64,000 nt of DNA from Bacteroidales bacterium (lineage in GTDB: Bacteria > Bacteroidota > Bacteroidia > Bacteroidales > UBA10428), in contig JAFGRC010000172.1 of the NCBI GenBank assembly GCA_016935355.1, forward strand, positions 7,091 through 71,090, written 5' to 3'. This document shows, one piece after another, positions 20,747 to 46,626 of the stretch (the first letter of the stretch is position 1; every line of letters begins with the position of its first letter). The notes below the pieces were generated by a model. It was not told the origin of the DNA. It saw only the letters and a list, made by a program, of their open reading frames with translations, and ran no database searches. Both the position numbers and the translations under genes were made by a program.

Positions 20747-20814
20747 TCAGGAATCAGGAAAGAGTTATTAATAATACAAGGTATTGTTACCTTATGATTT
20801 AATTCAAGATTGAC

Positions 20815-21570: not shown

Positions 21571-21600
21571 ATATACCATTTACCGGTTATTTCAATAGCG

Positions 21601-21639
21601 AGGGATAAGGATTTTCGATATCTTAATCCCTTATTTTTT
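21601..21639 (+). terminator. Putative intrinsic terminator after rplQ
   Basis: AGGGATAAGGAT-tttcgat-ATCTTAATCCCT forms 10 of 12 pairs and is followed by TATTTTTT. A second related hairpin lies at about 21650-21676. Confidence 0.55.
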
Positions 21640-21729
21640 GGGATATGCAAAAGGGAATTATCTTTAATCCCTTTGTTAGTTATAATTTGTTGTTTAATTT
21701 AGTTCTTTATTGTAAATAATGATCTGAGT

Positions 21730-24975: not shown

Positions 24976-24980
24976 TCAGA

Positions 24981-26768
24981 TCAGCTTTCGTTTTCCCCGG
25001 ATTCAAGTAAATTTTTCATTTTCTGAACCAGCAGATCAACCTGAAATGGTTTGCTGATATAATCATTCATTCCGGCTGCCAGACAGGTTTCCTTGTCTCC
25101 CGAAAGCGCATTTGCAGTTATGGCAATAATGGGTGTCAGCGTATTGGAAGATGATTCCAGTTCCCGTATTTTTTTTGTCGCGACAATACCATTAATGACA
25201 GGCATCTGAATGTCCATAAGGATCAGATCGTACTTGGCCGATCCGAATTTATCAAGGGCGTCCTTCCCGTTATGGGCAACATCAATGTTCTTTACCAGAT
25301 TTTTTAAGCTTAAAATAATGATTTTCTGATTGATAGCATTATCTTCGACCAGTAAAATGTTCGAATCTTTCAGTTCAACTTTGTGTTTGACCTGAAGCAG
25401 TCTGGTCACTTCCCTGTCCGGTTCAGTTCTTTTATACCCTGTAAAATGTGTATCTTTTTTCAAAGTTAACCTGAATGTCATGGAAGTGAAGTTGTCTGAA
25501 GTCGATATATCGAGTTCACCACCATAAAATTCAATGATCTTCTTTGCAATGATAAAATCAATAAAGTAATCATCAGGATGGTAGGTCCCTTCATGAATAA
25601 GTTCAGGACCGGGTCTGGCATAATAATTGCCGTAATCGTCTGATTCCAGATGAAGCAACGGACACCTGACGATAAAAGTCAGTGCTGTTTCCTGCTCACG
25701 ATCCTCCGCGACATCAACATCTGCTTCAATGGTGATCTTATGATCGGGATTTGCTTTGATCACATTCTCAATAATGTTGAGGAATATTTGTTTCACCCTT
25801 ATGGGATCACCAATATAATTGGTCTTTATGTTTTTTGAGATGTTCAGTGCAATGTCAATACGATCTTTGTACTGATCCCGGAACAACTTGAAAATACTCT
25901 CAATGGAAGCGTATAAGTCAAAGCTGACCTGACTGCTGACTTCTTTTTCAATTTTTACCTCTGAGACTTTGACGATGTTGTTGACCACATTGATCAGATT
26001 GATTGTCGATGCCATAATGGTATCAAAAAGATCACGCAGTTCGGGATCCAGCCGGGATTTGTTTACAAGATTTGAAACGACTGTCAGGTTGTTCAGAGGT
26101 GTTCTGATCTGGTGTGATAACTTGGACAGGAAATCCTCCTTTTGCCGGATCTCATTTTTAGACTCGATGATTGACCGTGTAAGTACCTGATAGTTGTGAA
26201 GTTTCAGGTATTCATGGAAATATATCATCAGGTGAATGATGGCATAAGCTCCGCCAAGTCTTATGGAAACTGCTGCTGTATATTCCTGTGATCCTTGAAT
26301 CTGTTGGTGTAAGGAAAAAAATGCTATGATCAACACAAAGAAGATAAATGACACTACATTACCCCGGCTCAGGCCATATAATGGAATTGAAAAGACCGGA
26401 AAAAACAACACCCAGATAAATCCGGTACCGGCAGTCCCTCCCGTATATAACAGGTATAGCATCACAACAGCAGCCAGTAGCGTGAGAATGAACTTACAGG
26501 TTCTCTGATGCTTTGCAAAATGATAAAAGATCAGATTTAAAATCAAAACACCTGCCGCCCCCAGCAATACAAAGGATAAGGCATTATTCTGACCGGTTAA
26601 AGCCATGATCCCGAATATAATACATATGACGGCACAGGTGAGGTGGTAAAGATAGATGAACAGGATTTTATTGACTACTTCCAGGTCAGACTGTCGTTCA
26701 AGTTTTTTTGTCAGACGATCCAGTAACAAATAGAGCAGATTCATTCTTGTTGAATTGGCCTTTGTCAA
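24981..26768 (-). CDS. Hybrid sensor histidine kinase / response regulator with about 6 N-terminal TM helices and a degenerate HATPase-like domain
   Basis: The HisKA H-box is SHQIRTPLNNL. An N-box-like NIIENVIKAN is present, but I can see no G1 (DxGxG) or G2 (GxGLGL) boxes. The receiver domain is intact (LLVEDN, LILMDIQMP, ITA, ISKP). Confidence 0.85.
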   Translation of the reverse strand: MTKANSTRMNLLYLLLDRLTKKLERQSDLEVVNKILFIYLYHLTCAVICIIFGIMALTGQNNALSFVLLGAAGVLILNLIFYHFAKHQRTCKFILTLLAAVVMLYLLYTGGTAGTGFIWVLFFPVFSIPLYGLSRGNVVSFIFFVLIIAFFSLHQQIQGSQEYTAAVSIRLGGAYAIIHLMIYFHEYLKLHNYQVLTRSIIESKNEIRQKEDFLSKLSHQIRTPLNNLTVVSNLVNKSRLDPELRDLFDTIMASTINLINVVNNIVKVSEVKIEKEVSSQVSFDLYASIESIFKLFRDQYKDRIDIALNISKNIKTNYIGDPIRVKQIFLNIIENVIKANPDHKITIEADVDVAEDREQETALTFIVRCPLLHLESDDYGNYYARPGPELIHEGTYHPDDYFIDFIIAKKIIEFYGGELDISTSDNFTSMTFRLTLKKDTHFTGYKRTEPDREVTRLLQVKHKVELKDSNILLVEDNAINQKIIILSLKNLVKNIDVAHNGKDALDKFGSAKYDLILMDIQMPVINGIVATKKIRELESSSNTLTPIIAITANALSGDKETCLAAGMNDYISKPFQVDLLVQKMKNLLESGENES

Positions 26769-26942
26769 ATATATTTATTCACTTGCTAATATAAAAACAG
26801 TTAAAAATAATAAATATTTACAGAATTCAGTTATAAAAACAATGAACTGCCTGTTCATTGAATATCGGATTAAGGGTATGCCACTTTAAAAAATATGCAA
26901 TAAATTTGTAAAATGACCACAACCGGCGGAAGGAAGACTTTA

Positions 26943-27629
26943 ATGAAAAGCATCATTTTATCGGCAACACTTGTCTTCTGCAGCACCTTAATGGCGGCAG
27001 GGCAGGATGCATCACAGATGATCCGGTATACTCCCGATTTCAAATTCAAAGACGGACTTTTTCTCCGTTTTGAGCAGGTCCAGCAGAACAGCCCGATACC
27101 GATATCCCTGATCATCAGTCCGGTTCCCTATGACGATCAGGATTTTTATGAAAGAATTTTACAGGACAAAGTGGTACAGTATTTTGATCAGCTGGGGATT
27201 GTGCAGGAAATTCAGATAAAGGATTTGTGGGGTTATTCCCATAACGGAATGTTGCACGTTAATATAAACGATGGTTTTTACCGCATTACTGTCATAGGAA
27301 AGATATGTCATTTTGTTGCCAGTCTGACCACATACAATAATTATTATAACCCGTATTATCCTTATACTTCACCTTATTATTATCCCTATTACAATCCCTA
27401 TTCGTATTATCCCGACAGGAGAACTACTGAAATGAGGCAGTACCTGCTGGATTTCACCACAGGTAATATCATGGATTATGATGTTCCGGAAATAGAAGTT
27501 TTACTCATGGCCGATCCTGAATTGCATGATGAGTATACATCGCTCAGCAAAAGAAAAAGAAGGCAAAGCAAATTTCTGTATATCAGAAAATTCAATGACC
27601 GTAATCCACTGTATTTTCCGGCCAACTGA
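26943..27629 (+). CDS. Hypothetical secreted protein with a Tyr/Pro/Asn-rich low-complexity segment
   Basis: The ATG at 26943 gives the signal peptide MKSIILSATLVFCSTLMAAGQ. The internal low-complexity run is YNNYYNPYYPYTSPYYYPYYNPYSYYP. Confidence 0.65.
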   Translation: MKSIILSATLVFCSTLMAAGQDASQMIRYTPDFKFKDGLFLRFEQVQQNSPIPISLIISPVPYDDQDFYERILQDKVVQYFDQLGIVQEIQIKDLWGYSHNGMLHVNINDGFYRITVIGKICHFVASLTTYNNYYNPYYPYTSPYYYPYYNPYSYYPDRRTTEMRQYLLDFTTGNIMDYDVPEIEVLLMADPELHDEYTSLSKRKRRQSKFLYIRKFNDRNPLYFPAN

Positions 27630-27664
27630 ACTGCGGTTTTGTATATGCGTTTGCAAATTTAATA

Positions 27665-28519
27665 ATGATGAATATGAAAAAAATAGTGATCACCTGGATT
27701 TTTCTGATGGCTTTTCCGGTATTGTTTGCTCAAAGCTATGTTCCATCCAGAGAGGATATTACAGCGTTTTTCAATACGACAACCCTTGTAGTTCTTGATG
27801 ATAGTCCGATCAGTGAATATAATACAATTATTTCCGGTGTGATGGAACAGGAGTGGAATGTAACTGATTTTGACTTTATTTCAAATAAAGAGTTTGAGGA
27901 AAAAAGGTTTGATCCTGCTTATTCTTTTATTTATAGCGCACAGGTTACATTTGAAAATGATAAAACTGATGCCCGGTACAGATTTCTCCATCTTACTCTG
28001 GGAGGAGACTATTTCAGACTGAACGAAATGCCTGATCTGGCTTCGGTACCATTGGCATACCATAGTGTGGATGAGGACCGGTATTCCTATAAGCTGGCAA
28101 TACTGGTAAGGTTCATTCAGAACCATGTGATGCTGATCCGTGAACATCCCGAGATCGTATCTTCCAACGTATTCAAATATTATAACAACAACATCAGGGA
28201 GATCAGGGATAAAATCCTTTATCTGCTTGAAGAGGAAATTGCTCCGGAGATCAGGAATACCTCAGGCATTCAGAAGGTCTATCCGTATAATTTTCAGATG
28301 GTTACAATGGAGGATATTGAAGAGGCAATTAAGCGCAGGGATCCGGATGTGGTTTTTCTGCATAAAGTGGGACCGGAAGGCACCAAACTTAATGCACGTT
28401 CTTATAAAATAATCATCGGAGCTGCAAATGCCAATTTTTATTATTTTGATTATCATATGATCAGCAATAAAAATCCGGATGGATTTCTGGAATCTGATTT
28501 TAAGAAATTGGCAAGGTGA
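27665..28519 (+). CDS. Hypothetical secreted protein (about 281-284 aa)
   Basis: The signal peptide is MKKIVITWIFLMAFPVLFAQ, with in-frame ATGs at 27665, 27668 and 27674. I recognise no family. Confidence 0.65.
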   Translation: MMNMKKIVITWIFLMAFPVLFAQSYVPSREDITAFFNTTTLVVLDDSPISEYNTIISGVMEQEWNVTDFDFISNKEFEEKRFDPAYSFIYSAQVTFENDKTDARYRFLHLTLGGDYFRLNEMPDLASVPLAYHSVDEDRYSYKLAILVRFIQNHVMLIREHPEIVSSNVFKYYNNNIREIRDKILYLLEEEIAPEIRNTSGIQKVYPYNFQMVTMEDIEEAIKRRDPDVVFLHKVGPEGTKLNARSYKIIIGAANANFYYFDYHMISNKNPDGFLESDFKKLAR

Positions 28520-28685
28520 TGTTTCATTGGGAATTGGATTTGATAATGGGAATTTACGGGTGCAGCCGGTCCGGTGATGAATGAATTGTTATGTTCACAT
28601 ATGCGATTTACCGAATAAACAAACAAACGTCTTAACAATTAAACAATATTTATTACTTTCATAGTCTGATTAAAATGTTAGCCGG

Positions 28686-29441
28686 ATGATCCGCATCAAA
28701 TCGGGTATTGTTCTTACATACTTGTTCTTATTTCTTGGAAGTGATCTGATTGCACAGGATCCTTCAAGGGCAAATGATCTGCTTTCTGAAGCGGATGTGC
28801 ATATCGGCAACAATCAACTTGGACAGGCCCTTGAAAAGACCAGGGAAGCATTACGGGTCGATCCGTCAAGTATGGCTGCAATTCAGAAGCAGATCAATAT
28901 TTATTATCTGATGAATGATAACAAGGAAGCTTTAAGGCTGGCTGATGCTGCCATAAAGAAATACCCCGGCGATCCGGAATTGTTATACCTCAGGGGGATT
29001 ATCAACAACAGCCGGGGACGTTATGCCAGGGCCCTTGAAGACTTTGATCAGGCACTGACTTTGCAGGATGAAGCTGGCGCTTATAAAATTTATCTGGGAC
29101 GGGGAATTGCTCATATGAGTCTTGTGGAATATGAACAGGCCATGTCGGATTTCTCCAGGTCAATTGAATTAAACGATAACATAGCGGGTGCTTATCACAG
29201 CCGTGCCCTCCTGAACTATGAACTCCAGGATTATCATGCCGCAATAGAAGACTTTCTGAAAACCCTGGAACGTAATGTGGAAAATGATGTGTTGTATTTC
29301 AACCTGGGTATGTCATATTACAGACTTTCTGATCGGACAAATGCATGTCCGTATTTTCACAAAGCCTGTACAATGGGGAACAACAATGCATGCAGGATGG
29401 TGCTGATGGAATGTGCCAAAGCACTACCGTATATCCCTTAA
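28686..29441 (+). CDS. Tetratricopeptide-repeat protein with a Cys-rich C-terminus
   Basis: It has a signal-peptide-like N-terminus and several TPR-type A..Y/F...A helix pairs. The C-terminus reads ACPYFHKACTMGNNNACRMVLMEC. Confidence 0.75.
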   Translation: MIRIKSGIVLTYLFLFLGSDLIAQDPSRANDLLSEADVHIGNNQLGQALEKTREALRVDPSSMAAIQKQINIYYLMNDNKEALRLADAAIKKYPGDPELLYLRGIINNSRGRYARALEDFDQALTLQDEAGAYKIYLGRGIAHMSLVEYEQAMSDFSRSIELNDNIAGAYHSRALLNYELQDYHAAIEDFLKTLERNVENDVLYFNLGMSYYRLSDRTNACPYFHKACTMGNNNACRMVLMECAKALPYIP

Positions 29442-29520
29442 AGATATACATCGTTATTCTGAAATCCAGGCAGCGTGTATTTCATAACCCTGTCATCACT
29501 GCTGATATTATTTGTCTTGA

Positions 29521-31548
29521 ATGGAATTGTCGGTTATTATAGTAAGCTACAACGTAAAGCATTTCCTTGAACAATGTCTGAATGCCGTTATTCGTTCGGC
29601 CGATACCATCAGGACAGAAATTATAGTTGTTGACAACAATTCGGTTGACGGTTCCGTTCAGATGGTACGGGAAAAATTTCCACAGGTCTTCCTCATTGCA
29701 AACCATTCCAATAACGGATTCGCAAAGGCCAATAACCAGGGCATTGTCATTTCCCGAGGTAAATATGTACTCCTGGTCAATCCCGATACCGTTGTTCAGG
29801 AAGACACCTTTCTAAAATGCATCGAATTTATGGAATCACATCCTGAGGCCGGATCTCTGGGTGTAAAAATGATTGACGGGAAAGGGAGGTTCCTGCCGGA
29901 GTCCAAACGGGCATTCCCCGCGCCGGAAGTGGCATTTTACAAAATATTCGGATTTTCTGCGCTTTTCCCCAGATCAAGGAAGTTTGGCAGGTATTCGCTG
30001 GGATATCTTGACCGGGAAAGTGTTCATGAAGTGGATGTGATCTCCGGAGCCTTTATGTTCATACGCCGGACAGCACTCGATAAATCGGGATTGCTGGATG
30101 AGGATTTTTTTATGTACGGGGAAGATATTGATCTCTCATACCGGATCAAGGAAAGCGGATATTTGAACTATTATTATCCGGAAACCGCCATTATTCACTA
30201 TAAAGGTGAAAGCACAAAAAAAAGCAGCATTAATTATGTGGTGATGTTTTATCAGGCGATGATTATTTTTGCCCGCAAACACTTTTCGAAAAATGCTGCC
30301 CGTTATTATGCTGCGTTGATTCAGACAGCAATCTATTTCAGGGCTGTTGTTTCCATTACCGTACGTTTTTTCACCGGCATCATTAATCCTTTGCTCAATG
30401 CACTCATAGTTTATGCCTGCTATTGTTTGTTCCTTCCGGTCTGGGCAAAACACCTTTTTGGGATCAACGGCAGCTATCCGCGGGAGTATCTTTATTACAT
30501 TGTACCTGCATACATTCTGGTATGGACACTCTCAATCTATTTCTCAGGCGGATATGAAAAACTGGTCAGGCCGGTAAACCTTCTTAAGGGAGTACTGACG
30601 GGTACCATAATTATACTGATCGTGTATGCATTGTTGCCCGAACATTTGAGATTTTCCAGGGCTTTAATTCTGATCGGGACGGTCTGGATGTTCATCACGG
30701 CACTGATCATTCGTCTTTTACTCAGTCAAACGGGCAGCAGTAATTTTAAACTTGAATTGCGCAAAAGAAAAAAGCGCATGATAATCGTTGGCAGCATGGC
30801 TGCCTGCAAGCGTGTATTGGAGATTCTGAACCAGAACGGAATAAAATGTGAATTTGCCGGATGCGTTCATCATATCACCGGGGAGCATGTTCCTGACGGG
30901 TATATCGGACATATCGGACAGATTGAAGAAATCGCCGGCATAAACAGGATTGAGGAAATCATTTTTTGTTCCCGCGATTTGACATCAAAAAACATCATAA
31001 AAACAATGTTGTTGTGCACCGGCACGGATGTCGAATTTAAAATTGCCCAGCCTGAAAGTCTTTCCATCATCGGAAGCAGTTCAGTCAATACCACGGGAGA
31101 CCTTTATGTGGTTCATTCCAACACACTGTCAAGAAGGCTTAACAGGAGAAAGAAGCGGCTGCTCGATATTGCCGTCGCATTGATCCTTGTGCTGATCAGT
31201 CCGGTCATGATGTTTATTGTGAAAAATCCCCGCGGTTATCTGCGGAATATCGGTTTGAACTTTTTAGGATTCACCTCATGGGTAAGCTATTGTCAGTTCT
31301 CAGAAAATCATCCCGGTTTACCCGGTCTGAAAACGGGCGTCCTCACTCCCGCTGACGGCCTGAATGTGGTGTCCATGTCGCCTGAAGCATTGGAAAACCT
31401 GAACTTGCTTTATGCTAAGGATTACAGCATTTCAAATGACATTAGCATCATATTGCGTTCCTGCAGGTATCTGGGAAGAAAACCCGGTTCCAATCCGGCA
31501 AAGAACAGGTCAGGCATGAATAATTCGAACAACAAATCAAAAAGCTGA
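29521..31548 (+). CDS. Family 2 glycosyltransferase fused to a WbaP-like membrane scaffold with a shortened Bac_transf-like C-terminus
   Basis: The first ~250 aa are GT2 (SVIIVSYNV; VVDNNSVDGS; NPD; GEDIDL). About five TM helices follow, then a Rossmann-like MIIVGSMAACKRVLEIL block. The C-terminal segment KRLLDIAVALILVLISPVMMF...PGLKTGVL...LYAKDYSISNDISIILRS resembles the two ends of a polyprenyl-phosphate sugar transferase domain. Confidence 0.8.
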   Translation: MELSVIIVSYNVKHFLEQCLNAVIRSADTIRTEIIVVDNNSVDGSVQMVREKFPQVFLIANHSNNGFAKANNQGIVISRGKYVLLVNPDTVVQEDTFLKCIEFMESHPEAGSLGVKMIDGKGRFLPESKRAFPAPEVAFYKIFGFSALFPRSRKFGRYSLGYLDRESVHEVDVISGAFMFIRRTALDKSGLLDEDFFMYGEDIDLSYRIKESGYLNYYYPETAIIHYKGESTKKSSINYVVMFYQAMIIFARKHFSKNAARYYAALIQTAIYFRAVVSITVRFFTGIINPLLNALIVYACYCLFLPVWAKHLFGINGSYPREYLYYIVPAYILVWTLSIYFSGGYEKLVRPVNLLKGVLTGTIIILIVYALLPEHLRFSRALILIGTVWMFITALIIRLLLSQTGSSNFKLELRKRKKRMIIVGSMAACKRVLEILNQNGIKCEFAGCVHHITGEHVPDGYIGHIGQIEEIAGINRIEEIIFCSRDLTSKNIIKTMLLCTGTDVEFKIAQPESLSIIGSSSVNTTGDLYVVHSNTLSRRLNRRKKRLLDIAVALILVLISPVMMFIVKNPRGYLRNIGLNFLGFTSWVSYCQFSENHPGLPGLKTGVLTPADGLNVVSMSPEALENLNLLYAKDYSISNDISIILRSCRYLGRKPGSNPAKNRSGMNNSNNKSKS

Positions 31549-31632
31549 TCCAAAAGATGTGTTTTTAACAAAAAGTTTATAAATTGATAGCCATTACATA
31601 CTGTTGATGATCTATGAATTGTATATAATTGT

Positions 31633-31640
31633 TAAATTTG
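31633..31640 (+). promoter_or_regulatory. Candidate -7 box (TAAATTTG) upstream of the first PorE-like paralog
   Basis: It matches TAnnTTTG exactly and ends 19 nt before the ATG at 31660. I found no good -33 TTTG at the right spacing. Confidence 0.3.
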
Positions 31641-31659
31641 TTTGATCACGCCTTGAATT

Positions 31660-34600
31660 ATGAAAATACCATCCCGTATCCGATATTCATTATGTATGCT
31701 GATCTTTTCTTCTCTGTTCAGTGTAAATGCCTTTGCCCAGGATGAGGGCAATTTCAAGGAATTGTTCCTCGAAGCTGAGTCTTTTTTCCTCTTTGAGGAG
31801 TTTAAAGATGCACTGCCCTTATATCAAAAGCTTTTACAGCTGGATCCTGAGAATTTCAACATCAATTATAAAATAGGCATATGTTACCTGAATGATCCCT
31901 ATCAGGTCAGCAAATCAATAACATATCTGGAAAATGCGATTAAGGGGACAAGTCCGGGTTACCGGATCAATAACCACAGGGAACGGATGGCACCGCAGGA
32001 GGCATATTATTATCTGGGGAATGCATACCGCGTCAACAACATGCTGGATGATGCCATTGAAATGTATGAGTTTTTCAAAGGGGTAATGGATCCCGTGGTA
32101 TATGATTCTGAACTGGTTGAGGCACAAATTGATGCCTGTGAAGTAGCAAGATCCCTGCAAGCGAGTCCGATTTATTTTACATCGTCAAATTTGGGCGGAA
32201 CGATCAATGAACGGTTTGAAGAAATCAATCCCGTCATTTCAGGTGATGAATCTGTCCTGGTATTTACACGCAAACTGCAGTTTTACGATGCCGTTTTTTA
32301 CAGCAGGAAAGAAAACGGGACATGGAGCTATCCGGTCAATCTCACCGCTTCTTTCGGTGTTGACGGAAATACTAATGTAACGGGAATATCTTATGATGGT
32401 GACGAACTTTTCGTATACCGAAGTGACGATTTTGACGGCAATATATATGTAAGCAGACGTAAAAACGATCAATGGTCACGGCTGGAAAAGCTAAACGATA
32501 ACATTAATACGAAATACTGGGAATCGCATGCTTCCATCTCGGATGATGGTAAAACACTTTACTTTACCAGCAACAGGAAAGGCGGTTACGGAGGACTTGA
32601 CATCTATAAATCGGAACGCAGGGAAGGAGGAAACTGGGGTCCGGCCATTAACCTGGGACCCGTGATCAATACCAAATACAACGAAGACACGCCTTTTGTT
32701 ACCGATGGAGGCTCGACAATTTATTTCAGCTCCATGGGACATTATAATATGGGTGGATATGATATTTTTTACAGTACCAGGCTTGATAACGGACGGTGGT
32801 CGGTTCCCGTCAATGTCGGATATCCGCTCAATTCAACGAACGATGACCGTTTTTTTGTTCCGACCCGTGATGGAGCGTATGCCTACTTTTCAAAATATAA
32901 TGCGGAAGATTCATATGGCCTTGCCGATTTATACAGGATGGAGGTATTTACCGATCTGCATCCAAGAAAATTCATTCTGAACGGTATTGCGCGAATCGAA
33001 GGTAACATCAGTGCAGATCTGACCCGGCATGCGGTGAAACTGGTCAATGCCCGGACAAAAGAAATTGTCGATCAGGATACCATGAATGCTGACGGGACCT
33101 ATACGCTGGATGCTGTATCCGGTGATTTTGAACTGCAGATCAGCCAAAAAGATGTCATTCTCGCCTCTGAAAGAATCTCGATTCCTGCAGACAATCCGTC
33201 AAATGTCATAACACATGCATCGACTTTCAGTCCTGCATCCCGGACTGAAGCTATAGCTGCCGGACCTGCGGAAAGTTTTAAACAGACCGATCTGCCGGTG
33301 ATTAACACCAGGATCAGATCTTACGATGTTACAACGGACCAGTCGATACCCATCGAACTGGAACTCGAAACTGATACGGAATTGGATGTCGAAACACGGG
33401 TAAACGGACAATTATTTAAAACTGAAAATTTTGAAATTGACCAGAGAAGTTTTATTTACATGCTGAAACCCTTTCAGGGTGAGAATACACTCCGGTTTAC
33501 CATCACCAATCGGGAAGGTGTCAGCAATACACTTGAAGTAACCGTGAATTACTTGCCTGAGATTGAAGAACTGGCTGCTGTTAAACCGCTGGAACAAAGT
33601 GTCAGGTCGGACACCAACCGATATGCGGTACTTGGTTCACTTGCAGGTGGAAATCTGGCCGCGTATTTACAGGGAACGGACCTTCAGGAATTGCAGTTCA
33701 GCACCATCGGTGAGTTGTATGAATACCTGGTTACCCAGAGCGATGAGAATAATTTCACGACAGAAGATGTGGATGCGCTGGTAACACGATACCTGGTCCA
33801 GAAGAACCTGGGTTTCTTTGTTGATGAGCTGAAGGACCAGTCTTCTGACAGCATTGTCAGGGCTGTTGACAGGATTTTCATCCAGTCAGCCGATCAATAT
33901 ACACCTGAAACATTGCTGGATCATCTTTTTGGAATTGCTGAACAGGGTAATTATTCTTCAGATGAACTGCAGGATGCCCTTTACAGGATCGCGGCAACCG
34001 ACCGCAATGAACTTTCAGTAATGGATCTTTTGCAATCATATTCCGTAGAAGGCCTCGCCGGTTATCTGGATGACATGAAACAAAACGTTTCCGGATTCCC
34101 TGATGTTGCTTCAATTGCAGACCATATCATGAAAGGCCTGGAGGAAAACTGGTTCAGTCAATCTGAATTTGAAACGGCGCTGAAAAGATCGGCATATGAA
34201 ATAGATGTTAACTTTTTACAGATGAGTCTTTTAAATATATCTGTCGATTCATTGCACCGTACTGTTGCCGGACTTAAACTCTGGGATCAGAACATACGCA
34301 ATGCAACCGAACTGGTCACTTATTTGCTGACGCATTCAGAATCCAATGGCTATACACGAAAAGATGTTCTTGATGATATTGAACAGATAAGGAGCAATCC
34401 TTACTATCTTGTAGAAATGTTCCGTAATACACTGGCAGAAGAAGCTACCGGCAGCCTGAAGATCTTTTTACAGGAAATCGACATAAGAGGACTGAATATT
34501 GACACCTATGGAAAGCTCATCAACTATCTTCTCAGGCAGTCAGAATATCAGGAATTCAACAGGGAAATGATCTACCAGCTTTTAATTGATATTATTGATA

Positions 34601-34965
34601 TCAGTGATGCCGGTGAGTTTGTTGATCTGTTGCTGCAATTCGCAGATGAACGCATTACCTCCGCAATATACGCAACAGATCCCGGACTGTATTCAAGACC
34701 GCTTGAGGTTGTCCAGTATCTTCTTGCTGCTTCCGATGAATATGCATATACGGAGCAGGATCTCCTGAATCTTTTGCTGAAGATATTCTTTGAAAGGAAA
34801 CCCCTGATCCGTGAAATTCCTCAGGAGAAAGGATGGTTTTTCGGAGCGGAAAGGCCTGCATTGATCAAGGCTCTGATTATAGCGAATACGGTCATTATAT
34901 TGCTGATCATCGTATTGATCTTTCTCAGGAGGCAAAAAAGAGATGCACAAAATTCCACTGAATGA
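31660..34965 (+). CDS. PorE-like paralog 1: signal peptide, TPR, PD40 beta-propeller, CRD-like and Ig-like domains, helical repeat array, C-terminal TM anchor
   Basis: Shared family motifs are YKIGICYLN, YYLGNAYRVNNMLDDAI, QFYDAVFYS, GKTLYFTSNRKGGYGGLDIY and TIYFSSMGHYNMGGYDIF. The CRD-like segment is LNGIARIEG...DGTYTLDAVSGDFELQIS. The C-terminal hydrophobic helix is ALIIANTVIILLIIVLIFL followed by RRQKR. There is no OmpA domain. Confidence 0.85.
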   Translation: MKIPSRIRYSLCMLIFSSLFSVNAFAQDEGNFKELFLEAESFFLFEEFKDALPLYQKLLQLDPENFNINYKIGICYLNDPYQVSKSITYLENAIKGTSPGYRINNHRERMAPQEAYYYLGNAYRVNNMLDDAIEMYEFFKGVMDPVVYDSELVEAQIDACEVARSLQASPIYFTSSNLGGTINERFEEINPVISGDESVLVFTRKLQFYDAVFYSRKENGTWSYPVNLTASFGVDGNTNVTGISYDGDELFVYRSDDFDGNIYVSRRKNDQWSRLEKLNDNINTKYWESHASISDDGKTLYFTSNRKGGYGGLDIYKSERREGGNWGPAINLGPVINTKYNEDTPFVTDGGSTIYFSSMGHYNMGGYDIFYSTRLDNGRWSVPVNVGYPLNSTNDDRFFVPTRDGAYAYFSKYNAEDSYGLADLYRMEVFTDLHPRKFILNGIARIEGNISADLTRHAVKLVNARTKEIVDQDTMNADGTYTLDAVSGDFELQISQKDVILASERISIPADNPSNVITHASTFSPASRTEAIAAGPAESFKQTDLPVINTRIRSYDVTTDQSIPIELELETDTELDVETRVNGQLFKTENFEIDQRSFIYMLKPFQGENTLRFTITNREGVSNTLEVTVNYLPEIEELAAVKPLEQSVRSDTNRYAVLGSLAGGNLAAYLQGTDLQELQFSTIGELYEYLVTQSDENNFTTEDVDALVTRYLVQKNLGFFVDELKDQSSDSIVRAVDRIFIQSADQYTPETLLDHLFGIAEQGNYSSDELQDALYRIAATDRNELSVMDLLQSYSVEGLAGYLDDMKQNVSGFPDVASIADHIMKGLEENWFSQSEFETALKRSAYEIDVNFLQMSLLNISVDSLHRTVAGLKLWDQNIRNATELVTYLLTHSESNGYTRKDVLDDIEQIRSNPYYLVEMFRNTLAEEATGSLKIFLQEIDIRGLNIDTYGKLINYLLRQSEYQEFNREMIYQLLIDIIDISDAGEFVDLLLQFADERITSAIYATDPGLYSRPLEVVQYLLAASDEYAYTEQDLLNLLLKIFFERKPLIREIPQEKGWFFGAERPALIKALIIANTVIILLIIVLIFLRRQKRDAQNSTE
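33631..34795 (+). repeat. Protein-level tandem repeats: about six degenerate helical modules of roughly 60-70 aa inside paralog 1
   Basis: The recurring core is [polar]-x-x-E/x-L-h-x-Y-L-h-x-x-S-[DE]-x-x-x-[YF]-[TS]-x-x-[DE]-h. Examples are IGELYEYLVTQSDENNFTTEDVDAL, PETLLDHLFGIAEQGNYSSDELQDAL, ATELVTYLLTHSESNGYTRKDVLDDI, YGKLINYLLRQSEYQEFNREMIYQL and PLEVVQYLLAASDEYAYTEQDLLNLL. Confidence 0.6.
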
Positions 34966-35002
34966 CTGAATGATTAGAAGGCTGCTGTTAAAGTAAAAAT
35001 AA

Positions 35003-37021
35003 ATGAGGCCAGTTCATCCGTTATACCGGTGCATACGAGTAATATGTCTTGTTTCGTTGTTTTCCTTCTTTTATCCCGCAGCAGGTCAGGTAATTGTGCC
35101 TCGACCTGAAGATATCTATGAGGAAGCTGAACAATATGTGTTTGCAGGAGATTATCAGGAAGCTTTGGCTTCATACATGAGCCTTTACGAAAAAGGTTAT
35201 ACCACAGCAAACATCAGCTACAAAATCGGGACCTGCTATCTCAATCTGTCCGGATTAAGAACAAAGGCAATACATTTTCTGCATGACGCTTCCCGGCATG
35301 CATCACGGGTATATTCAGGAGGAGCGTTATATGAAGCCCGGGCACCCGTCAAGTCATTTCTATATCTGGGTATTGCACACCGCATCAACTACGATTTTGA
35401 CCTCGCTGAAAAAGCTTTTCTGACTTATGTTGATTCCCTTGACGAAACAGACGTGACAGGCAGGGCACTGGCTCAATATCACCTGGAACGATGTGAAAAT
35501 GCAAGGGAACTGATCGCATCACCCGCCACCCTGAAAGCAGATACCCTGCCGGGTGTAATAAATAACCGGTTGTCAAATTTTAATCCGCTGGTCACGGATG
35601 ATGAGAAAATACTTTTTTTTAATGAACAACTAAAATTTTATGATGCGGTGATGGTATCCCATAAGGAAGATTATGCATGGTCGGTTCCGGAAAACATCAC
35701 CCCAAAGATCAGATCCGACGGGGATCATTACCTGACGGGAATATCACAGAACGGGGACAGGTTATTGCTTTCAGCACATGATCCTTATATGAGCGGAACG
35801 ATCTATGAGGCTGAGAATATAAACGGCCGGTGGAGACCGCTTAAGGTTTTGAATGATAACATCAATACCCGTTTCAACGAGACACATGCATCTTTTTCAA
35901 AAGATGGGAATACGCTGTATTTTACCAGTGACCGTCCGGGAGGATACGGGGGACTTGATCTCTACAAATCGGAACGGAATGGTACAGGCAACTGGGGTCC
36001 TGCACAGAATCTGGGTCCTCTTGTGAACACACCCTATAATGAAGAAACACCTTTTGTTACCGGAGATCCTGTCATACTTTTTTTCAGTTCACAGGGACAT
36101 TATAACATGGGAGGATATGATATATTCTTTTCCCGCAGGTTTGATGACGGAGCCTGGCAACATCCGGTGAACATCGGCTATCCGGTCAATACTCCCGATG
36201 ATGACCTGTTCTATTATCCCCTGCCTTCAGGCGAGGCGGCTTACAAACCGGTATTACACAACATCCGTGCGGACCCCGATATTGTCCGGTATCAGATTTT
36301 GGAACCCGGTAAGCCTGCCCGGTATACCATCAACGGAAACATTGAAATTGAGGATCAGAACGGGGCCGGTTATTCGGATATCCTGGTTTCCGTGTTCACC
36401 AGACCGGAAAACGATACCATCGGCCGGCACCATCCGGATGATAACGGAACATTCAGTCAGAAAGTCCCCGGTGGATCATTCACACTGGAGATCACCCAAG
36501 GAGGTTATCCGGTTTATTCCAGGGAACTGGAAATACCTTCTTATTTCCCCCATAAGGAACTTGTGCTCAATGCATCCGTCTCTTTACCGTTCCGATCTGC
36601 ACTTGACACATTGATCCTGAGAAACATCAGGTTTGATTTTGATCAAAGTGATATCAGGGATAAAGCCCGGACCTTTCTTGATGGTCTGGCCATGATGTTG
36701 AACAAATATCCCGAAATAACGGTCACTTTGAACGGATATACAGATGCTGTCGGATCCGAGTCCTACAATGTGAAATTATCACTGGAAAGGGCGAGTAATG
36801 CAAGAGATTTTCTAAGCGGACGTAATATCGTTCAAAACCGACTGATGATTAACGGCTTCGGAGAAAATTATCCGGTGGCTTTGAATACAACTCCTGACGG
36901 AAGTGATGTACCTGAAGGCCGGGCATACAACAGGCGGGTGGAAATCGTTCTGGAGAATATTCCGGAGAACCTTACAATTATTAAAGGGAATGATATTCCT
37001 GAAAACCTGCTGATAAAATGA
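35003..37021 (+). CDS. PorE-like paralog 2: signal peptide, TPR, PD40 beta-propeller, CRD-like domain, OmpA_C-like peptidoglycan-binding domain
   Basis: Shared motifs are YKIGTCYLN, KFYDAVMVS, GNTLYFTSDRPGGYGGLDLY and FFSSQGHYNMGGYDIF. The CRD-like segment is YTINGNIEIEDQNG...GSFTLEITQGGY. The OmpA_C motifs are NGYTDAVGSESYNVKLSLERA and GRAYNRRVEIVL. Confidence 0.88.
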   Translation: MRPVHPLYRCIRVICLVSLFSFFYPAAGQVIVPRPEDIYEEAEQYVFAGDYQEALASYMSLYEKGYTTANISYKIGTCYLNLSGLRTKAIHFLHDASRHASRVYSGGALYEARAPVKSFLYLGIAHRINYDFDLAEKAFLTYVDSLDETDVTGRALAQYHLERCENARELIASPATLKADTLPGVINNRLSNFNPLVTDDEKILFFNEQLKFYDAVMVSHKEDYAWSVPENITPKIRSDGDHYLTGISQNGDRLLLSAHDPYMSGTIYEAENINGRWRPLKVLNDNINTRFNETHASFSKDGNTLYFTSDRPGGYGGLDLYKSERNGTGNWGPAQNLGPLVNTPYNEETPFVTGDPVILFFSSQGHYNMGGYDIFFSRRFDDGAWQHPVNIGYPVNTPDDDLFYYPLPSGEAAYKPVLHNIRADPDIVRYQILEPGKPARYTINGNIEIEDQNGAGYSDILVSVFTRPENDTIGRHHPDDNGTFSQKVPGGSFTLEITQGGYPVYSRELEIPSYFPHKELVLNASVSLPFRSALDTLILRNIRFDFDQSDIRDKARTFLDGLAMMLNKYPEITVTLNGYTDAVGSESYNVKLSLERASNARDFLSGRNIVQNRLMINGFGENYPVALNTTPDGSDVPEGRAYNRRVEIVLENIPENLTIIKGNDIPENLLIK

Positions 37022-37129
37022 CCCTGGTCAGTAAAGGATTTTATGTCCGGTTGGTATTGGTTTAATTTAGAATTATTATTGCACTCCCTGCGGATAATTT
37101 ATTAAATTTGTTATAAAATCCCTTCTTAT

Positions 37130-39094
37130 ATGAAAAAAGCACTGGTCTTTGGCTCATTCATAATTTTGTTTTCATTTGTGCATGCGCAGGAAATTGAAAG
37201 ATCTGTATTAAAAGAATACTTTCTGGATGCGGAATTTTTCTTCGCGCAGGAAGCATATGCTGATGCCTTGTACGAATACCTGGAATTATACAATAATGGT
37301 TACCGGGATGTTGCCAACATCAACTACAGGATCGGTATCTGTTACCTGAACATTCCGGGACAAAAGGACAGTTCCATTCCGCATTTGCTTGAAGCCGTAA
37401 AGGATGTATCTTCCAGGTACCGGGAAAGTTCTTTCAGACAGGAAAGTGCACCGGCAGATGCATGGTTGTTCCTGGGCAATGCATACAGGGTCAATAACAT
37501 GCTTGATGAGGCCATTTCCGCATATTCTGCATTCAAAGCACTAACAAAATCGACTGATGAGATACAATTTGCAGATCAGCAGATCACAGCCTGCAATAAT
37601 GCATTACAGTATATGAACCGGCCTCTGGATATCCGGATCACGAATCTGGGCGATTCGATCAACGGGACTTCATCAAATTTCAAGGCTGTTGTTTCGGGTG
37701 ATGGCAGAACCCTGGTTTATATGAATGAACTGCCTTTTTACGATGCCGTATATTTTTCCAGATACCGGAACGGATCATGGTCGGCTCCTGTCAATATCAC
37801 ACCACAAATAGAATCGGACGGTGACCAGTATGTATCATCTGTCTCATATGATGGCACTGTATTATACCTTACCCGGGAGGATCCTTTTAACAGTGATATT
37901 TATACAAGCACTTTTGTGGGGGACAGATGGACAAAGTCACAGCCGATAGCCGGCCAGAACATCAATACCAAATACTGGGAATCCCATGCTTCAATTTCAG
38001 CGGATGGCAGATCCCTGTATTTCACAAGCAACCGCAGGGGAGGATCCGGGAATATGGATGTGTATATTTCAAGACTTCAGGGAGATGGCATATGGGGTGA
38101 ACCGTTGAACCTGGGATCCGGCATCAACACGGCATTGAATGAGGACACGCCCTTTATTACTGAAAATGACAGCCTGTTGTATTTCAGCTCACAGGGTCAT
38201 GAAAATATTGGCGGTTATGATATATTCAGGGTCCGACTAAACCGGGATGGAAGCTGGAGTACTCCTGAAAATATGGGTTATCCGATAAATACCACGGATG
38301 ATGATCTGTTCTATTATCCCTGGCATAATGACCGTATAGGTTATGCATCGTTATACCGTGATGATGGTTATGGCAAGGAGGATATTTTTGCATTTCAGGC
38401 TGCAGACGATAAACCGTTATATGAATTGATCGCTGAATTGTTGCCTCAGGAAACGATGCCTCCGGAACAGTCAATAGAGGAAAGTGTTGATGCGGAGACA
38501 GTTGCAGCTGATGCTGCAGTTTCAGGTACAGAAACTTCCGGCGGACAGGCTGCCGCAACCGGCATGCCTGAAAAGGAGGTTGGTGAAGCCGAAGCACCGG
38601 AGACTGAAAAAGAGCAGACAGAAGTTGCAGAGGCTGCACCATCTGAAGTTCCGGAACCTGCTGGTAAAAAGCTTTTGGAGGTTGAACTCAATCCGCTATA
38701 TTTTAGTTTTGATGATCATGAACTCACTGAAACGGGCAAAAATGAACTCCAAAAAATATACGACCTGCTTTCTGAATTTCCGGAAGTACATTTAAGGTTG
38801 ATGGGTTATACAGATGCAGTAGGACCGGCTGCATACAACCTCGGATTGTCTGAAAGGCGGGCAGTTTCTGCCATGAACCATCTCGTGGATCTTGGTATGG
38901 ATGTAAAAAGGCTGACAGCGGTGGGACTCGGGGAAACCGGTTTTGCAGCAATAAACACCAATGCTGATGGCACGGATAATCCTGAAGGCAGGAGGCTGAA
39001 CAGAAGGGTTGAATTTGATATCATGGGACTGGAAGAGCAAATGATCATCATCAGAAGACCGGCAGTACCCGAAAATCTCAGATTCAAAGAATAA
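37130..39094 (+). CDS. PorE-like paralog 3: signal peptide, TPR, PD40 beta-propeller, acidic low-complexity linker, OmpA_C-like domain
   Basis: Shared motifs are YRIGICYLN, LFLGNAYRVNNMLDEAI, PFYDAVYFS, GRSLYFTSNRRGGSGNMDVY and LYFSSQGHENIGGYDIF. The E/A/T/P-rich linker spans about 38401-38672. The OmpA_C motifs are MGYTDAVGPAAYNLGLSERRA and GRRLNRRVEF. Confidence 0.88.
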   Translation: MKKALVFGSFIILFSFVHAQEIERSVLKEYFLDAEFFFAQEAYADALYEYLELYNNGYRDVANINYRIGICYLNIPGQKDSSIPHLLEAVKDVSSRYRESSFRQESAPADAWLFLGNAYRVNNMLDEAISAYSAFKALTKSTDEIQFADQQITACNNALQYMNRPLDIRITNLGDSINGTSSNFKAVVSGDGRTLVYMNELPFYDAVYFSRYRNGSWSAPVNITPQIESDGDQYVSSVSYDGTVLYLTREDPFNSDIYTSTFVGDRWTKSQPIAGQNINTKYWESHASISADGRSLYFTSNRRGGSGNMDVYISRLQGDGIWGEPLNLGSGINTALNEDTPFITENDSLLYFSSQGHENIGGYDIFRVRLNRDGSWSTPENMGYPINTTDDDLFYYPWHNDRIGYASLYRDDGYGKEDIFAFQAADDKPLYELIAELLPQETMPPEQSIEESVDAETVAADAAVSGTETSGGQAAATGMPEKEVGEAEAPETEKEQTEVAEAAPSEVPEPAGKKLLEVELNPLYFSFDDHELTETGKNELQKIYDLLSEFPEVHLRLMGYTDAVGPAAYNLGLSERRAVSAMNHLVDLGMDVKRLTAVGLGETGFAAINTNADGTDNPEGRRLNRRVEFDIMGLEEQMIIIRRPAVPENLRFKE

Positions 39095-39098
39095 ACCG

Positions 39099-40433
39099 AT
39101 GTATTGTTTCATCCGGAATACCGTTTTCTTTTTTATGTTAGTCATACTGTCACCTGTGAGCATATGGTCACAGTCAGGTGATATGATTGTGGAAACATTC
39201 GATGATGCAGAGTTCTTTTATGCCCGCGGCGAATACGAAGAAGCAGCTTATTATTACCGGCAGCTGGTTACATATTCTCCGGCAAACGCAAATTATCATT
39301 TCAAACTCGGGGAATGTTACCTGAATATTCCCGGAAGTGAGATACTGGCCGTTCCGCATCTGGAGAAAGCCAAAGACAACATCATCGAGAAAAAAAAATA
39401 CAGGGCAAAGGATTTTACCGAAGACCGGGCCCCGCTGCATGCTTTTTTTTACCTGGGGAATGCTTACCGGATCAACAATCAGTTATCTGAGGCACTTGAA
39501 GCTTATAACACCTTTGTAAGCTCACCTTTTTATTACGGGAATTATAATGTGGCAATTGTTGAAAATGAGATCAAATCCTGTGAACGTGCCAAGATCATTC
39601 AGGATCATCCGATACAAATGACCGGGATTCTCCTCGACAGCACGATCAATACTTCTGCATCTGAGTTAAACCCCGTTATATCATCCGATGAACAGGAAAT
39701 ATTTTTTGTCAGGCGCCTGAAGTTCTATGATGCGGTTTATACCAGTGTCAGAAAGGAAGGAACATGGACTGATCCGGTGAACCTGAATCCCTTCATAGGT
39801 TCTGACGGAGATTTTTACCCGGCATGCATCTCACCGGATAAGAGGGCGTTGTACCTTATAAAAAAAGATGTAACGAACAGTGATATTTATGTAAGCTACA
39901 GGGTGGATTCAGTTTGGACCGGAGTGCAAAAGCTGAATAAAAAAATAAATTCAAAGGCGAACGAAACTTCGGCATGGATTTCAGAGGACGGGGAAACACT
40001 TTTTTTCTCAAGTTCCAGAAGAAGGGGTGTGGGGGGTAAAGACATCTATTATGCCATAAGGAAGAAAAACGGCGAATGGGGCAGGGTCAGAAATATCGGC
40101 AAGACGATCAATACGCCCTTTGATGAGGAAGGTCCCTGTCTTACAAACCAGGGTAATACATTATATTTCAGTTCAAAAGGCCATTATAATATGGGTGGAT
40201 TTGATATTTTTTTTTCAAACCGGAACGGTGACGCATGGGGAGAACCTGTCAATGCCGGCTATCCATTGAACGATACCGGGGATAATACCGGATATACCGC
40301 ACTGATGGGTGGCATGACCGGTTATTATTCAAAGATGAACATGACCGGAACTTCCGGCGAGGACATTTACCGGGTTGTGATCCGGACCAACCTGCCCCGT
40401 ATTATGGAAACCATTGAAAGCATGCAGCAATGA
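39099..40433 (+). CDS. PorE-like paralog 4: signal peptide, TPR, PD40 beta-propeller only (no CRD, no OmpA)
   Basis: It starts 4 nt after the stop of paralog 3. Shared motifs are FKLGECYLN, FYLGNAYRINNQLSEAL, KFYDAVYTS, GETLFFSSSRRRGVGGKDIY and LYFSSKGHYNMGGFDIF. Confidence 0.85.
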   Translation: MYCFIRNTVFFFMLVILSPVSIWSQSGDMIVETFDDAEFFYARGEYEEAAYYYRQLVTYSPANANYHFKLGECYLNIPGSEILAVPHLEKAKDNIIEKKKYRAKDFTEDRAPLHAFFYLGNAYRINNQLSEALEAYNTFVSSPFYYGNYNVAIVENEIKSCERAKIIQDHPIQMTGILLDSTINTSASELNPVISSDEQEIFFVRRLKFYDAVYTSVRKEGTWTDPVNLNPFIGSDGDFYPACISPDKRALYLIKKDVTNSDIYVSYRVDSVWTGVQKLNKKINSKANETSAWISEDGETLFFSSSRRRGVGGKDIYYAIRKKNGEWGRVRNIGKTINTPFDEEGPCLTNQGNTLYFSSKGHYNMGGFDIFFSNRNGDAWGEPVNAGYPLNDTGDNTGYTALMGGMTGYYSKMNMTGTSGEDIYRVVIRTNLPRIMETIESMQQ

Positions 40434-40458
40434 TATCAAATTAACTTAGACATGCAGG

Positions 40459-41046
40459 ATGACAGATAAGCTGGAAAACAATCCGGAATTTGAAATTACA
40501 TTACGGGCACTGGAACCTGCTGATATCGATGTGATCTACAAATGGGAAAACGATCCGGATATCGGGCGCATCAGCAATACTTATACGCCCTATTCAAAAT
40601 ACATCCTTGAAAAATACATAGAAAATTCCCACCTTGATATCTTTCAGGTTAAACAAATGCGGTTGATGATCGATGTCCGTGACAGGAAGGAAGACCTTGT
40701 ACGCTCGATTGGAACAATTGACCTTTTTGATTTTGACCCCTATCACAACCGTGCCGGGGTGGGAATCCTTATTGGTGAAAAATCCGACCGCAAAAGGGGA
40801 TATGCCACAATGGCTTTAAAAAAGTTCATTCATTATGGTTTTAACATCCTCCAACTTCATCAGTTATACTGCAATATTGTCCCGGAAAACCTGGACAGTA
40901 TGAAATTATTTAAAAATCAGGGTTTCCGGATCTGCGGCAAAAAGAAAGACTGGATCCGAACACCCGGCCGTTATGTTGAAGAATACACGCTGCAATTGAT
41001 CAATCCCAATGATTCAGGCGGAGATACCAAAATGACCGGTCGCTGA
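40459..41046 (+). CDS. GNAT family N-acetyltransferase (RimJ/SpeG-like)
   Basis: It is 195 aa with acetyl-CoA binding-type motifs (RNRAGVGILIGEKSDRKRGYAT.AL). It starts 25 nt after paralog 4. Confidence 0.8.
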   Translation: MTDKLENNPEFEITLRALEPADIDVIYKWENDPDIGRISNTYTPYSKYILEKYIENSHLDIFQVKQMRLMIDVRDRKEDLVRSIGTIDLFDFDPYHNRAGVGILIGEKSDRKRGYATMALKKFIHYGFNILQLHQLYCNIVPENLDSMKLFKNQGFRICGKKKDWIRTPGRYVEEYTLQLINPNDSGGDTKMTGR

Positions 41047-46529: not shown

Positions 46530-46553
46530 TAAAGATCAACAAATCAGTAATTT

Positions 46554-46592
46554 CCTCCCCTTTTTAGGGGAGGTGGCCGAAGGCCGGAGGGG
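46554..46592 (+). terminator. GC-rich double hairpin downstream of rhaT (terminator-like or REP-like element)
   Basis: CCTCCCC-tttta-GGGGAGG is followed by GGCC-gaa-GGCC and GGAGGGG. No U-tract follows. Confidence 0.4.
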
Positions 46593-46626
46593 TAAATAAG
46601 TAAACGAATCAATAAACAAATATATT

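Follow-up and report, generated by a model that had tools for sequence, protein, structure and literature searches.

Introduction

What connects the inner membrane, the cell wall and the outer membrane of Bacteroidota is still under study. To our knowledge, these bacteria possess neither a canonical Tol-Pal system nor Braun lipoprotein, and the proposal that PorE is a compact stand-in for Tol-Pal is recent. A block of nine genes in a Bacteroidales bacterium (UBA10428; assembly GCA_016935355.1, contig JAFGRC010000172.1), in which the gene of a membrane glycosyltransferase is followed by those of four PorE-like proteins, raises the question in a concrete form: are these genes one dedicated envelope system, or do they stand side by side for other reasons? 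The whole stretch of DNA analysed, a window of 64,000 nt, supplies the positions given throughout, unless a related locus is named.

Comparison of the block with its relatives tips the balance, if only somewhat, towards a mosaic: three or four gene groups, each inherited separately, in place of a single dedicated system. The locus is therewith a caution that co-directional envelope genes of Bacteroidota can resemble an operon and yet be a patchwork. Within the mosaic, the association of the glycosyltransferase gene with PorE-like genes is real, and the glycosyltransferase itself is built on the disabled chassis of another enzyme.

Organisation of the locus

The first-pass annotation described ten genes at 26913–41046, all on the plus strand. 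Span and strand agree with the open reading frame (ORF) calls, while the number does not: nine ORFs are present, and the gene list of that annotation also sums to nine. They are termed A to I here and encode proteins of 238, 284, 251, 675, 1101, 672, 654, 444 and 195 residues, respectively. The spacers measure 35, 166, 79, 111, 37, 108, 4 and 25 nt from A to I, which matches the range of 4–166 nt given earlier, and the absence of terminators between the genes was likewise borne out, with no plus strand terminator-like site in any spacer. By domain and hydropathy analysis, the products of A to H belong to the envelope or membrane, with the GNAT acetyltransferase (I) as the sole exception.

The proposed sequence of gene types also agrees with Pfam and NCBIfam searches. 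Two secreted proteins without a Pfam or NCBIfam family come first (A and B), A carrying a conserved Tyr/Pro-rich loop, followed by a secreted tetratricopeptide repeat (TPR) protein (C) and a glycosyltransferase family 2 (GT2) protein with a WbaP-like region (D). Four paralogs sharing TPR and PD40 propeller domains follow (E to H), of which E has a C-terminal membrane helix, F and G have an OmpA domain and H is short, before the GNAT gene.

From such features the first-pass annotation drew the reading that all nine genes form one co-regulated glycan-scaffold system, tied to the machinery of type IX secretion (T9SS) and anionic lipopolysaccharide (A-LPS) cargo attachment. The common direction, the short spacers free of terminator-like sites and the envelope or membrane nature of all products but the GNAT protein speak for it, as does the order A to H, which is kept in the related loci L001, L003, L004, L091 and, without F, L090 (numbers of this kind denote loci of the comparison set). 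Set against the evidence of the following sections, however, so inclusive a system is very improbable.

Conservation of gene order

The comparison set comprised about 90 related loci, in 82 of which ORFs were called and clustered. In addition, D (29521–31548, plus strand) was sought in one genome per species, with at least 599 confirmed loci. It is present in at least 599 species genomes, mostly between recR and housekeeping genes, and the best 80 of these homologs align over the whole protein at 47–59% identity. The full order, consisting of a hybrid kinase gene on the opposite strand, A, B, C, D, in some loci a 2-oxoacid dehydrogenase E2 gene, E, F, G and H, is confined to the window's clade (L001–L004, L090 and L091), and the adjacency of A, B, C and D is found only there. 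Unrelated upstream genes, the hybrid kinase and a Reg_prop-SpoIIE gene, are likewise collinear in this clade. The block is not a single syntenic unit.

The claim of one unit also conflicts with the independent occurrence of its parts. The A-B pair is found elsewhere beside an ABC-F ATPase gene, and the D-GNAT pair recurs without the paralogs. Within the clade, F is dispensable: the closest relative, L090 (GCA_016926205.1, 12108–19484; about 80% identical), has E, G and H and no counterpart of F. Copy number of the paralogs varies among close relatives, L004 having a fifth copy after H (20781–21953). In L003 (13482–20989), several PorE-like genes are split in two ORFs (470 and 587 residues, 380 and 314 residues), probably through frameshift errors of a long-read metagenome bin and not as real pseudogenes.

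Elsewhere, D follows recR and precedes E2, exonuclease and FAH-family genes, or it precedes a GNAT gene, HSDR_N on the opposite strand, holA and a rhomboid gene. Its neighbours in about 80 genomes are mostly housekeeping genes (recR, lysA, the E2 acyltransferase, exonuclease, FAH-family, holA and rhomboid genes). In about 15 loci without an intervening PorE-like gene, the GNAT gene follows D at a distance of 3–90 nt. Since it directly follows D in many loci and never has a -7 promoter box of its own (0 of 21 loci), D, and not the paralogs, is its evolutionary partner. PorE-like genes are inserted between the two in the window and in L005, L010, L025, L080 and L090.

Across Bacteroidota, no gene stands immediately downstream of D more frequently than the E2 gene (lipoyl acyltransferase). 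It often separates D from a PorE-like gene, as in L001 (11987–13315) and L091 (12039–13325), and is absent from the window.

Association of D with PorE-like genes

The two sides of D served as an internal control, each locus being counted on a side where it offered at least 5 kb of sequence, with a search reach of 10 kb. Of the 62 loci counted on the downstream side, 20 have a PorE-like gene there (19 of them on the strand of D); of the 53 counted on the upstream side, none has one. At least six arrangements contribute: D-E-G-H-GNAT; D-E2-E-F-G-H; D-E2, a protein of ~540 residues without OmpA, then the exonuclease; D-E2 followed by proteins of 554, 1349 and 745 residues; D, one PorE-like gene and the exonuclease; and D, a 723-residue protein and GNAT. 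Two backbones carry the association, recR-D-E2-...-exonuclease and D-...-GNAT-holA. That a membrane glycosyltransferase is paired with PorE-like proteins, as first claimed, is thereby upheld, and the pairing is directional and non-random. It is not obligatory, 42 of the 62 loci having no PorE-like gene. This downstream enrichment also speaks for the inclusive nine-gene system.

Does the association carry a function? On one account it carries none: the D-GNAT pair, the paralogs, the A-B pair and C would be unrelated housekeeping envelope genes, adjacent through inherited order. The mostly unrelated genes around D in about 80 genomes agree with this, as do the E2 gene that often parts D from the PorE-like gene, the 42 loci without such a gene within 10 kb and the cotranscription of PorE in Porphyromonas gingivalis with the unrelated queD and queE (PMC5053529). 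What such an account leaves unexplained is the strict asymmetry between the two sides, with 19 of the 20 downstream cases on the same strand, its persistence through at least six arrangements on two backbones, and the precise insertion of clusters between D and GNAT in several lineages. It is regarded here as unlikely. A functional coupling of D with E to H is suggested by the recurrent one-sided adjacency, the single feature that points to it.

Transcription signals

Three matches to the Bacteroidota -7 consensus (TAnnTTTG) with the sequence TAAATTTG lie in the spacers, all on the plus strand: ahead of A (26901–26908), 20 nt before E (31633–31640) and 20 nt before G (37103–37110). From the plus strand density of the motif in the window, 0.3 would be expected in the 709 nt of spacers; the boxes stand 20–35 nt before A (counted from Met11), E and G. 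Window-wide the motif is not enriched (55 versus 52 expected), and the three boxes are notable only for their placement in spacers. The positions recur in relatives: ahead of the A orthologs of L001, L003, L004 and L091, at -27/-28 before the E orthologs of L003, L004 and L091, and, in 8 of the 9 relatives inspected, ahead of the G-type ortholog at -29 to -36. A scan for sigma-70 promoters and terminators gave counts at shuffle level and was uninformative.

Although the nine genes have the direction, spacing and lack of terminator-like sites expected of a single operon, such an operon is not established, because boxes precede A, E and G at positions that recur in relatives. The candidate internal promoters before E and G count against one co-regulated system. 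The spacer between D and E is long (111 nt in the window, 175 nt in L090), which fits separate transcription. Together, these signals suggest three transcription units, A-D, E-F and G-I.

The box ahead of A also bears on the start of that gene. It ends 5 nt before the ATG at 26913, and in an alignment of 35 sequences many homologs start near residue 11; the ATG at 26943 is therefore the likelier and probably the true start.

Protein D and its GNAT partner

D is a 675-residue inner-membrane protein in which a GT2 domain is fused to the chassis of a large phosphoglycosyl transferase (PGT) of the WbaP type. The GT2 domain occupies residues 1–240 (PF00535, 92 bits against a gathering score of 23.3). 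Among 13 homologs, D38, N87-P88-D89 and E201-D202-I203-D204 are invariant, save I203, which is not within the invariant set. Matches of this domain in the PDB are GT2 enzymes, namely 5tz8/5tze (which we take to be Staphylococcus aureus TarS), SpsA and PglI. No characterised fusion of GT2 with CoA_binding_3 was found in literature searches.

According to PMC10312794, large PGTs are built from a four-helix bundle, a dimerising domain of unknown function that binds uridine nucleotides (DUF; PF13727) and a catalytic domain that carries an Asp-Glu dyad. The first two are present in D, with a membrane-helix bundle at residues ~262–400 (hydropathy peaks at 287–305, 354–372 and 382–400) and a PF13727-like region at ~359–483, followed by a re-entrant helix (549–567) and a vestigial PGT end (~590–655). 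TIGR03025 matches residues 294–567 with an E-value of 9e-20, and PF13727 matches at E-values of 2.5e-4 to 8.8e-3, under the gathering score.

The third part is missing. A profile of the C-terminal half of D aligns with WbaP (8t53) in three collinear pieces, WbaP residues 142–261, 320–354 and 485–521, and with PglC (8e37) at residues 11–31 and 119–187. The equivalent of PglC 32–118 is reduced to ~20 residues in D, and about 65–80 residues of the catalytic domain are gone, a stretch that includes the site of the Asp-Glu dyad. The Bac_transf domain (PF02397) is matched at its C-terminal end only (positions 143–174 of 179; E-value 0.0036), and no invariant Asp-Glu pair follows residue 545 in the 13 homologs. 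D consequently lacks a complete monotopic PGT catalytic domain, and since this core is deleted, it is not an initiating transferase. The WbaP-like scaffold noted earlier is confirmed; a role of D as a WbaP-type initiating transferase is not supported.

Most likely, D would extend a lipid-linked acceptor (polyprenyl-phosphate or -diphosphate) without initiating its synthesis, and the dead chassis would serve as a scaffold for membrane and lipid-carrier docking and for dimerisation. Its FFMYGEDIDLSYR motif is similar to that of WbbL/RfbF-type GT2 enzymes, and TIGR01556 gives a weak match (57 bits against a cutoff of 200). With an intact GT2 domain on a gutted WbaP scaffold, D clearly exemplifies an enzyme chassis put to new use once its active site was lost. 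Being widespread (at least 599 species) and unstudied, it is a good target in the search for a conserved glycan step of the Bacteroidota envelope.

Its partner, I (40459–41046, plus strand), is a cytoplasmic acetyltransferase of the GNAT family (Acetyltransf_3, PF13302, 77.2 bits against a cutoff of 25.4). It scores below the cutoffs of the NCBIfam equivalogs (SpeG 48.7 against 218 bits, PseH 46 against 93), and the target of acetylation may be the sugar donor or the product of D.

PorE-like paralogs E to H

The four paralogs, all on the plus strand, are E (31660–34965), F (35003–37021), G (37130–39094) and H (39099–40433), the last beginning 4 nt past G. They are mutually 34–40% identical over the first ~430 residues, the TPR-propeller part, and belong by Pfam and NCBIfam matches to the PorE/CHU_0125 superfamily, in keeping with the first-pass annotation. 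None passes a family cutoff. The PorE model (NF052230, cutoff 600) gives 124.6, 198.6, 193.3 and 130.1 bits for E, F, G and H, and the CHU_0125 model (NF053607, cutoff 620) 149.5, 195.2, 217.3 and 130.5 bits. Single PorE-like genes beside D in other loci were considered as true PorE genes and rejected, with scores of 130–279 bits, all under the cutoff of 600. Inspected by eye, the signal peptides terminate in ...AFA|Q, ...AAG|Q, ...VHA|Q and ...IWS|Q, without a lipobox Cys, and the D-adjacent paralogs of other loci all have signals of the SPI type without a lipobox.

The claimed PorE-type link to T9SS and A-LPS loses its footing here: E to H fall short of the PorE cutoff and have no lipoprotein signal, and among the ORFs scanned across the 64-kb window there is no porK, porL, porM, porN, sov, porV or porP-like gene. 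Such a link is pure conjecture. The same three observations, together with the loss of the PGT catalytic core from D, also detract from the inclusive nine-gene system to which the link belonged.

In architecture the paralogs range from a near-complete PorE to a truncated form. F matches the PorE model continuously (positions 22–602 of 648) and appears to have all four of its domains, TPR, propeller, CRD and OmpA, the CRD match being weak. G lacks the CRD, where it has instead a low-complexity acidic linker rich in Ala, Glu, Pro and Thr (residues ~440–515; 38450–38680) before its OmpA domain. E is without OmpA, and H, a secreted and soluble protein of TPR and propeller only, is without both CRD and OmpA. 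The OmpA domains of F and G score 61.7 and 56.8 bits in Pfam, and each contains the peptidoglycan-binding motif, NVKLSLERASNARDFL in F and NLGLSERRAVSAMNHL in G. In both the V is replaced by A, so that the motif reads N-x2-LS-x2-RA-x2-[V/A]-x3-L against the reference NX2LSX2RAX2VX3L (PMC5053529).

E departs furthest from PorE. Its signal peptide and TPR-propeller part (1–430) are followed by weakly matched CRD-like and Big_9 Ig domains (445–640), about six tandem helical repeats of 63–66 residues each (~650–1060; 33607–34839), and a C-terminal membrane helix at 1071–1089, the one strong hydrophobic helix by hydropathy, with a basic tail (RRQKR). Self-BLAST of the C-terminal region detected no repeats, whereas profile-profile comparison did: the two halves of the repeat region align with an hhalign probability of 99.9 (E-value 1.6e-31), with register-shifted alternatives. 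The region has no significant sequence match in the PDB or Pfam. In E-type orthologs the repeats are loosely conserved, always between the Ig-like domains and the C-terminal membrane helix. This helix with its basic tail is kept in the E-types of L001, L004, L005, L010, L020 and L080.

E-, G- and H-types recur as a trio in L005, L010, L020, L080 and L090. G-type orthologs are present in every Bacteroidales-clade locus that carries a paralog cluster, and H orthologs were identified in L005, L010, L020 and L090. Judged from their domains and signals, the four proteins would span the inner membrane (E), the peptidoglycan (F and G) and the soluble periplasm (H), with no outer-membrane anchor.

Might these proteins act by themselves? 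E to H could constitute a self-contained Tol-Pal analogue for outer-membrane stabilisation or division, with E TolA-like, H TolB/CpoB-like and F and G Pal-like, and D irrelevant to it. The domains correspond in kind (TPR to CpoB, propeller to TolB, OmpA to Pal), the models TIGR02800, TIGR02795 and TIGR02802 match weakly, the long helical repeat region of E stands beside a membrane anchor, G and H are a conserved tight pair with a -7 box of their own, and the same idea has been published for PorE itself (PMC12204202). These matches to the TolB, YbgF and Pal models all lie far under cutoff, however, and no TolQ, TolR or TolA gene, and with it no motor, is encoded in the window. No member has an outer-membrane anchor, so that the link to that membrane is missing. 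Furthermore, TolA uses polar residues of its membrane helix to engage TolQR, whereas the helix of E is C-terminal and, by eye, devoid of polar residues for such engagement. On this evidence the analogue is doubtful.

Proteins A, B and C

A (26913–27629, plus strand) has 537 homologs and B (27665–28519, plus strand) 1169, all annotated as 'hypothetical' and from Bacteroidales metagenome bins. A has no Pfam or NCBIfam match. Its Tyr/Pro-rich loop (residues ~140–167) is conserved across 35 homologs and predicted to be disordered in an AlphaFold2 model (pLDDT 66.6), and Foldseek gave no PDB fold match at an E-value of 1e-3 or below. B, an alpha/beta protein with no family above threshold (AlphaFold2 pLDDT 69), belongs to a family of 716 clusters at 50% identity by exhaustive profile search. 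Against the PDB, Foldseek found only weak matches of B to PelC and a formyltransferase, none at an E-value of 1e-3 or below. A PelC-like fold for half of B (probability 0.9, TM 0.4, E-value ~0.01) was too weak to be used, and an assignment to DUF6395 (Pfam, 17 bits against a cutoff of 25) was likewise left unused.

In the window's clade B is always paired with A. Profiles of both, even a broad one of B, found no match when run on those ORFs of 78 other species that lie no more than 10 kb from D. In a distant lineage (L083 6165–7763; L084 103–1701), an A-like gene, which matches the A profile with an E-value of 1.5e-75, stands next to a B-like gene, and an ABC-F ATPase gene comes after the two, with no D or TPR gene nearby. 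As the pair occurs elsewhere without D, A and B form a module of their own. In L088 (2544–4265), two B-like genes in tandem precede an ABC-F ATPase gene.

C (28686–29441, plus strand) has an N-terminal hydrophobic signal and matches TPR_1 with 84.7 bits and TPR_2 with 81.5 bits. It adjoins D only in the window's clade.

A modular reading of the block

In the mosaic favoured here, the nine genes would fall into modules of different history. D and GNAT would be the first, a conserved inner-membrane enzyme pair of Bacteroidota. The second, E to H, would have been inserted between the two and consist of fusions of a CpoB-like TPR part and a TolB-like propeller, some with a CRD and a Pal-like OmpA domain. 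A and B, as an independent secreted pair, and C would make up a third, located here in this clade only.

In the second module, E would be tethered to the inner membrane via its C-terminal helix and extended by the helical repeats as a stalk of ~400 residues, while F and G would bind peptidoglycan and H would be soluble. Through their common TPR-propeller parts the four proteins probably assemble into a periplasmic scaffold that reaches from the inner membrane to the peptidoglycan, as inferred from their domains. Whether this scaffold serves D is a further step. That E, G and H, with F, form a trans-periplasmic apparatus working with D and GNAT in the synthesis, positioning or attachment of a glycan, either lipid-linked or associated with peptidoglycan, is a long shot on present sequence evidence. 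If true, the apparatus would amount to a Tol-Pal-like scaffold whose task is the assembly of an envelope glycan.

Several points weigh against this modular reading and the roles assigned in it. The loci are phylogenetically non-independent, and 20 of 62 versus 0 of 53 overstates the number of independent events. The link of D with PorE-like genes could be inherited synteny without function, an unrelated E2 gene intervening in many lineages; PorE with queD and queE offers a published precedent for cotranscription with unrelated genes (PMC5053529). The promoter boxes are consensus matches only, hence candidates, and the closest relative, L090, has no box before G. The absence of a lipobox in E to H was judged by eye. 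The acceptor type proposed for D derives only from the likeness of FFMYGEDIDLSYR to WbbL/RfbF-type enzymes and the sub-cutoff TIGR01556 match.

Three uncharacterised parts are worth study in their own right: the fusion of GT2 with a dead WbaP chassis, the inner-membrane-anchored PorE-like protein with novel repeats, and the A-B pair.

Genomic surroundings

The window starts with two ORFs (390 and 237 residues) without a Pfam family and a DUF4197 protein (51–2720). Upstream of the block, whose flanks are unremarkable, lies the ribosomal operon fusA...secY...rpoA-rplQ. Directly upstream of A (21730–26768) are the genes of a Reg_prop/beta-propeller-SpoIIE phosphatase protein (1081 residues) and, divergently transcribed, of a MASE6 hybrid histidine kinase/response regulator; all close relatives (L001, L003, L004, L090 and L091) keep both collinear with the block. 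These could be regulators of the block or merely share its ancestry. Downstream follow HSDR_N, holA, rhomboid, aminotransferase IV and AlgH genes, and then a rhamnose utilisation locus (45486–60453) with RhaT, RhaA, an FGGY kinase, an ECF sigma/FecR pair, a SusC/SusD pair and a GH78 alpha-L-rhamnosidase, unrelated to the block. Rfam at gathering thresholds identified no RNA family in the window, and hence none in the 166-nt spacer between B and C.

Comparison with known systems

PorE of P. gingivalis (PG1058), a T9SS-associated protein, is a lipoprotein that carries a motif for peptidoglycan binding (PMC5053529), and has been read as a fusion of CpoB, TolB, CP and Pal that may tether the outer membrane to the peptidoglycan (PMC12204202). 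F appears to share its order of TPR, five-blade propeller, CRD and OmpA_C, the TPR-propeller part recurs in E, G and H, and the binding motif in F and G. The four proteins differ from it in their scores of 125–199 bits against a cutoff of 600 and in having no type II signal or lipobox. E has Ig domains, helical repeats and an inner-membrane anchor in place of OmpA, G has an acidic linker for the CRD and H ends after the propeller. Nor is the context that of PorE, since the neighbours of the block are not queD/queE or porP-like genes and a T9SS context is lacking.

CHU_0125 of Cytophaga hutchinsonii is a TPR-PD40-OmpA 'Pal' required for outer-membrane integrity and degradation of crystalline cellulose. 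Superfamily and domain types are shared, and it provides the best NCBIfam match of G (217 bits). E to H are nevertheless far under its cutoff of 620 bits and form a cluster of several paralogs that includes members without OmpA. Multiple PorE-like paralogs within one Bacteroidota genome are also known from Flavobacterium johnsoniae, where the porE-like genes adjoin porP-like genes (PMC9143113). There they are paired with porP-like barrels and type B C-terminal-domain cargo, whereas here they form a tandem cluster beside a glycosyltransferase, with no porP-like gene.

Compared with WbaP and other large monotopic PGTs (8t53), the membrane bundle, the PF13727 DUF, the re-entrant helix ('KKRxxD...') and the 'YAKDY...D..I' end of D are collinear. 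In contrast, D is without ~65–80 catalytic residues, including the dyad region, and has gained a GT2 domain at its N-terminus.

With Tol-Pal (CpoB/YbgF, TolB, Pal and TolA), E to H have in common the periplasmic folds and a peptidoglycan-binding module, and the elongated helical part of E is reminiscent of TolA. Their domains are fused rather than separate, TolQR genes are not nearby, an outer-membrane lipid anchor is absent and the membrane helix of E is C-terminal. Set beside these systems, the locus reveals non-lipidated members in the PorE superfamily, among them a conserved form that is anchored in the inner membrane and built with an undescribed repeat of ~65 residues.

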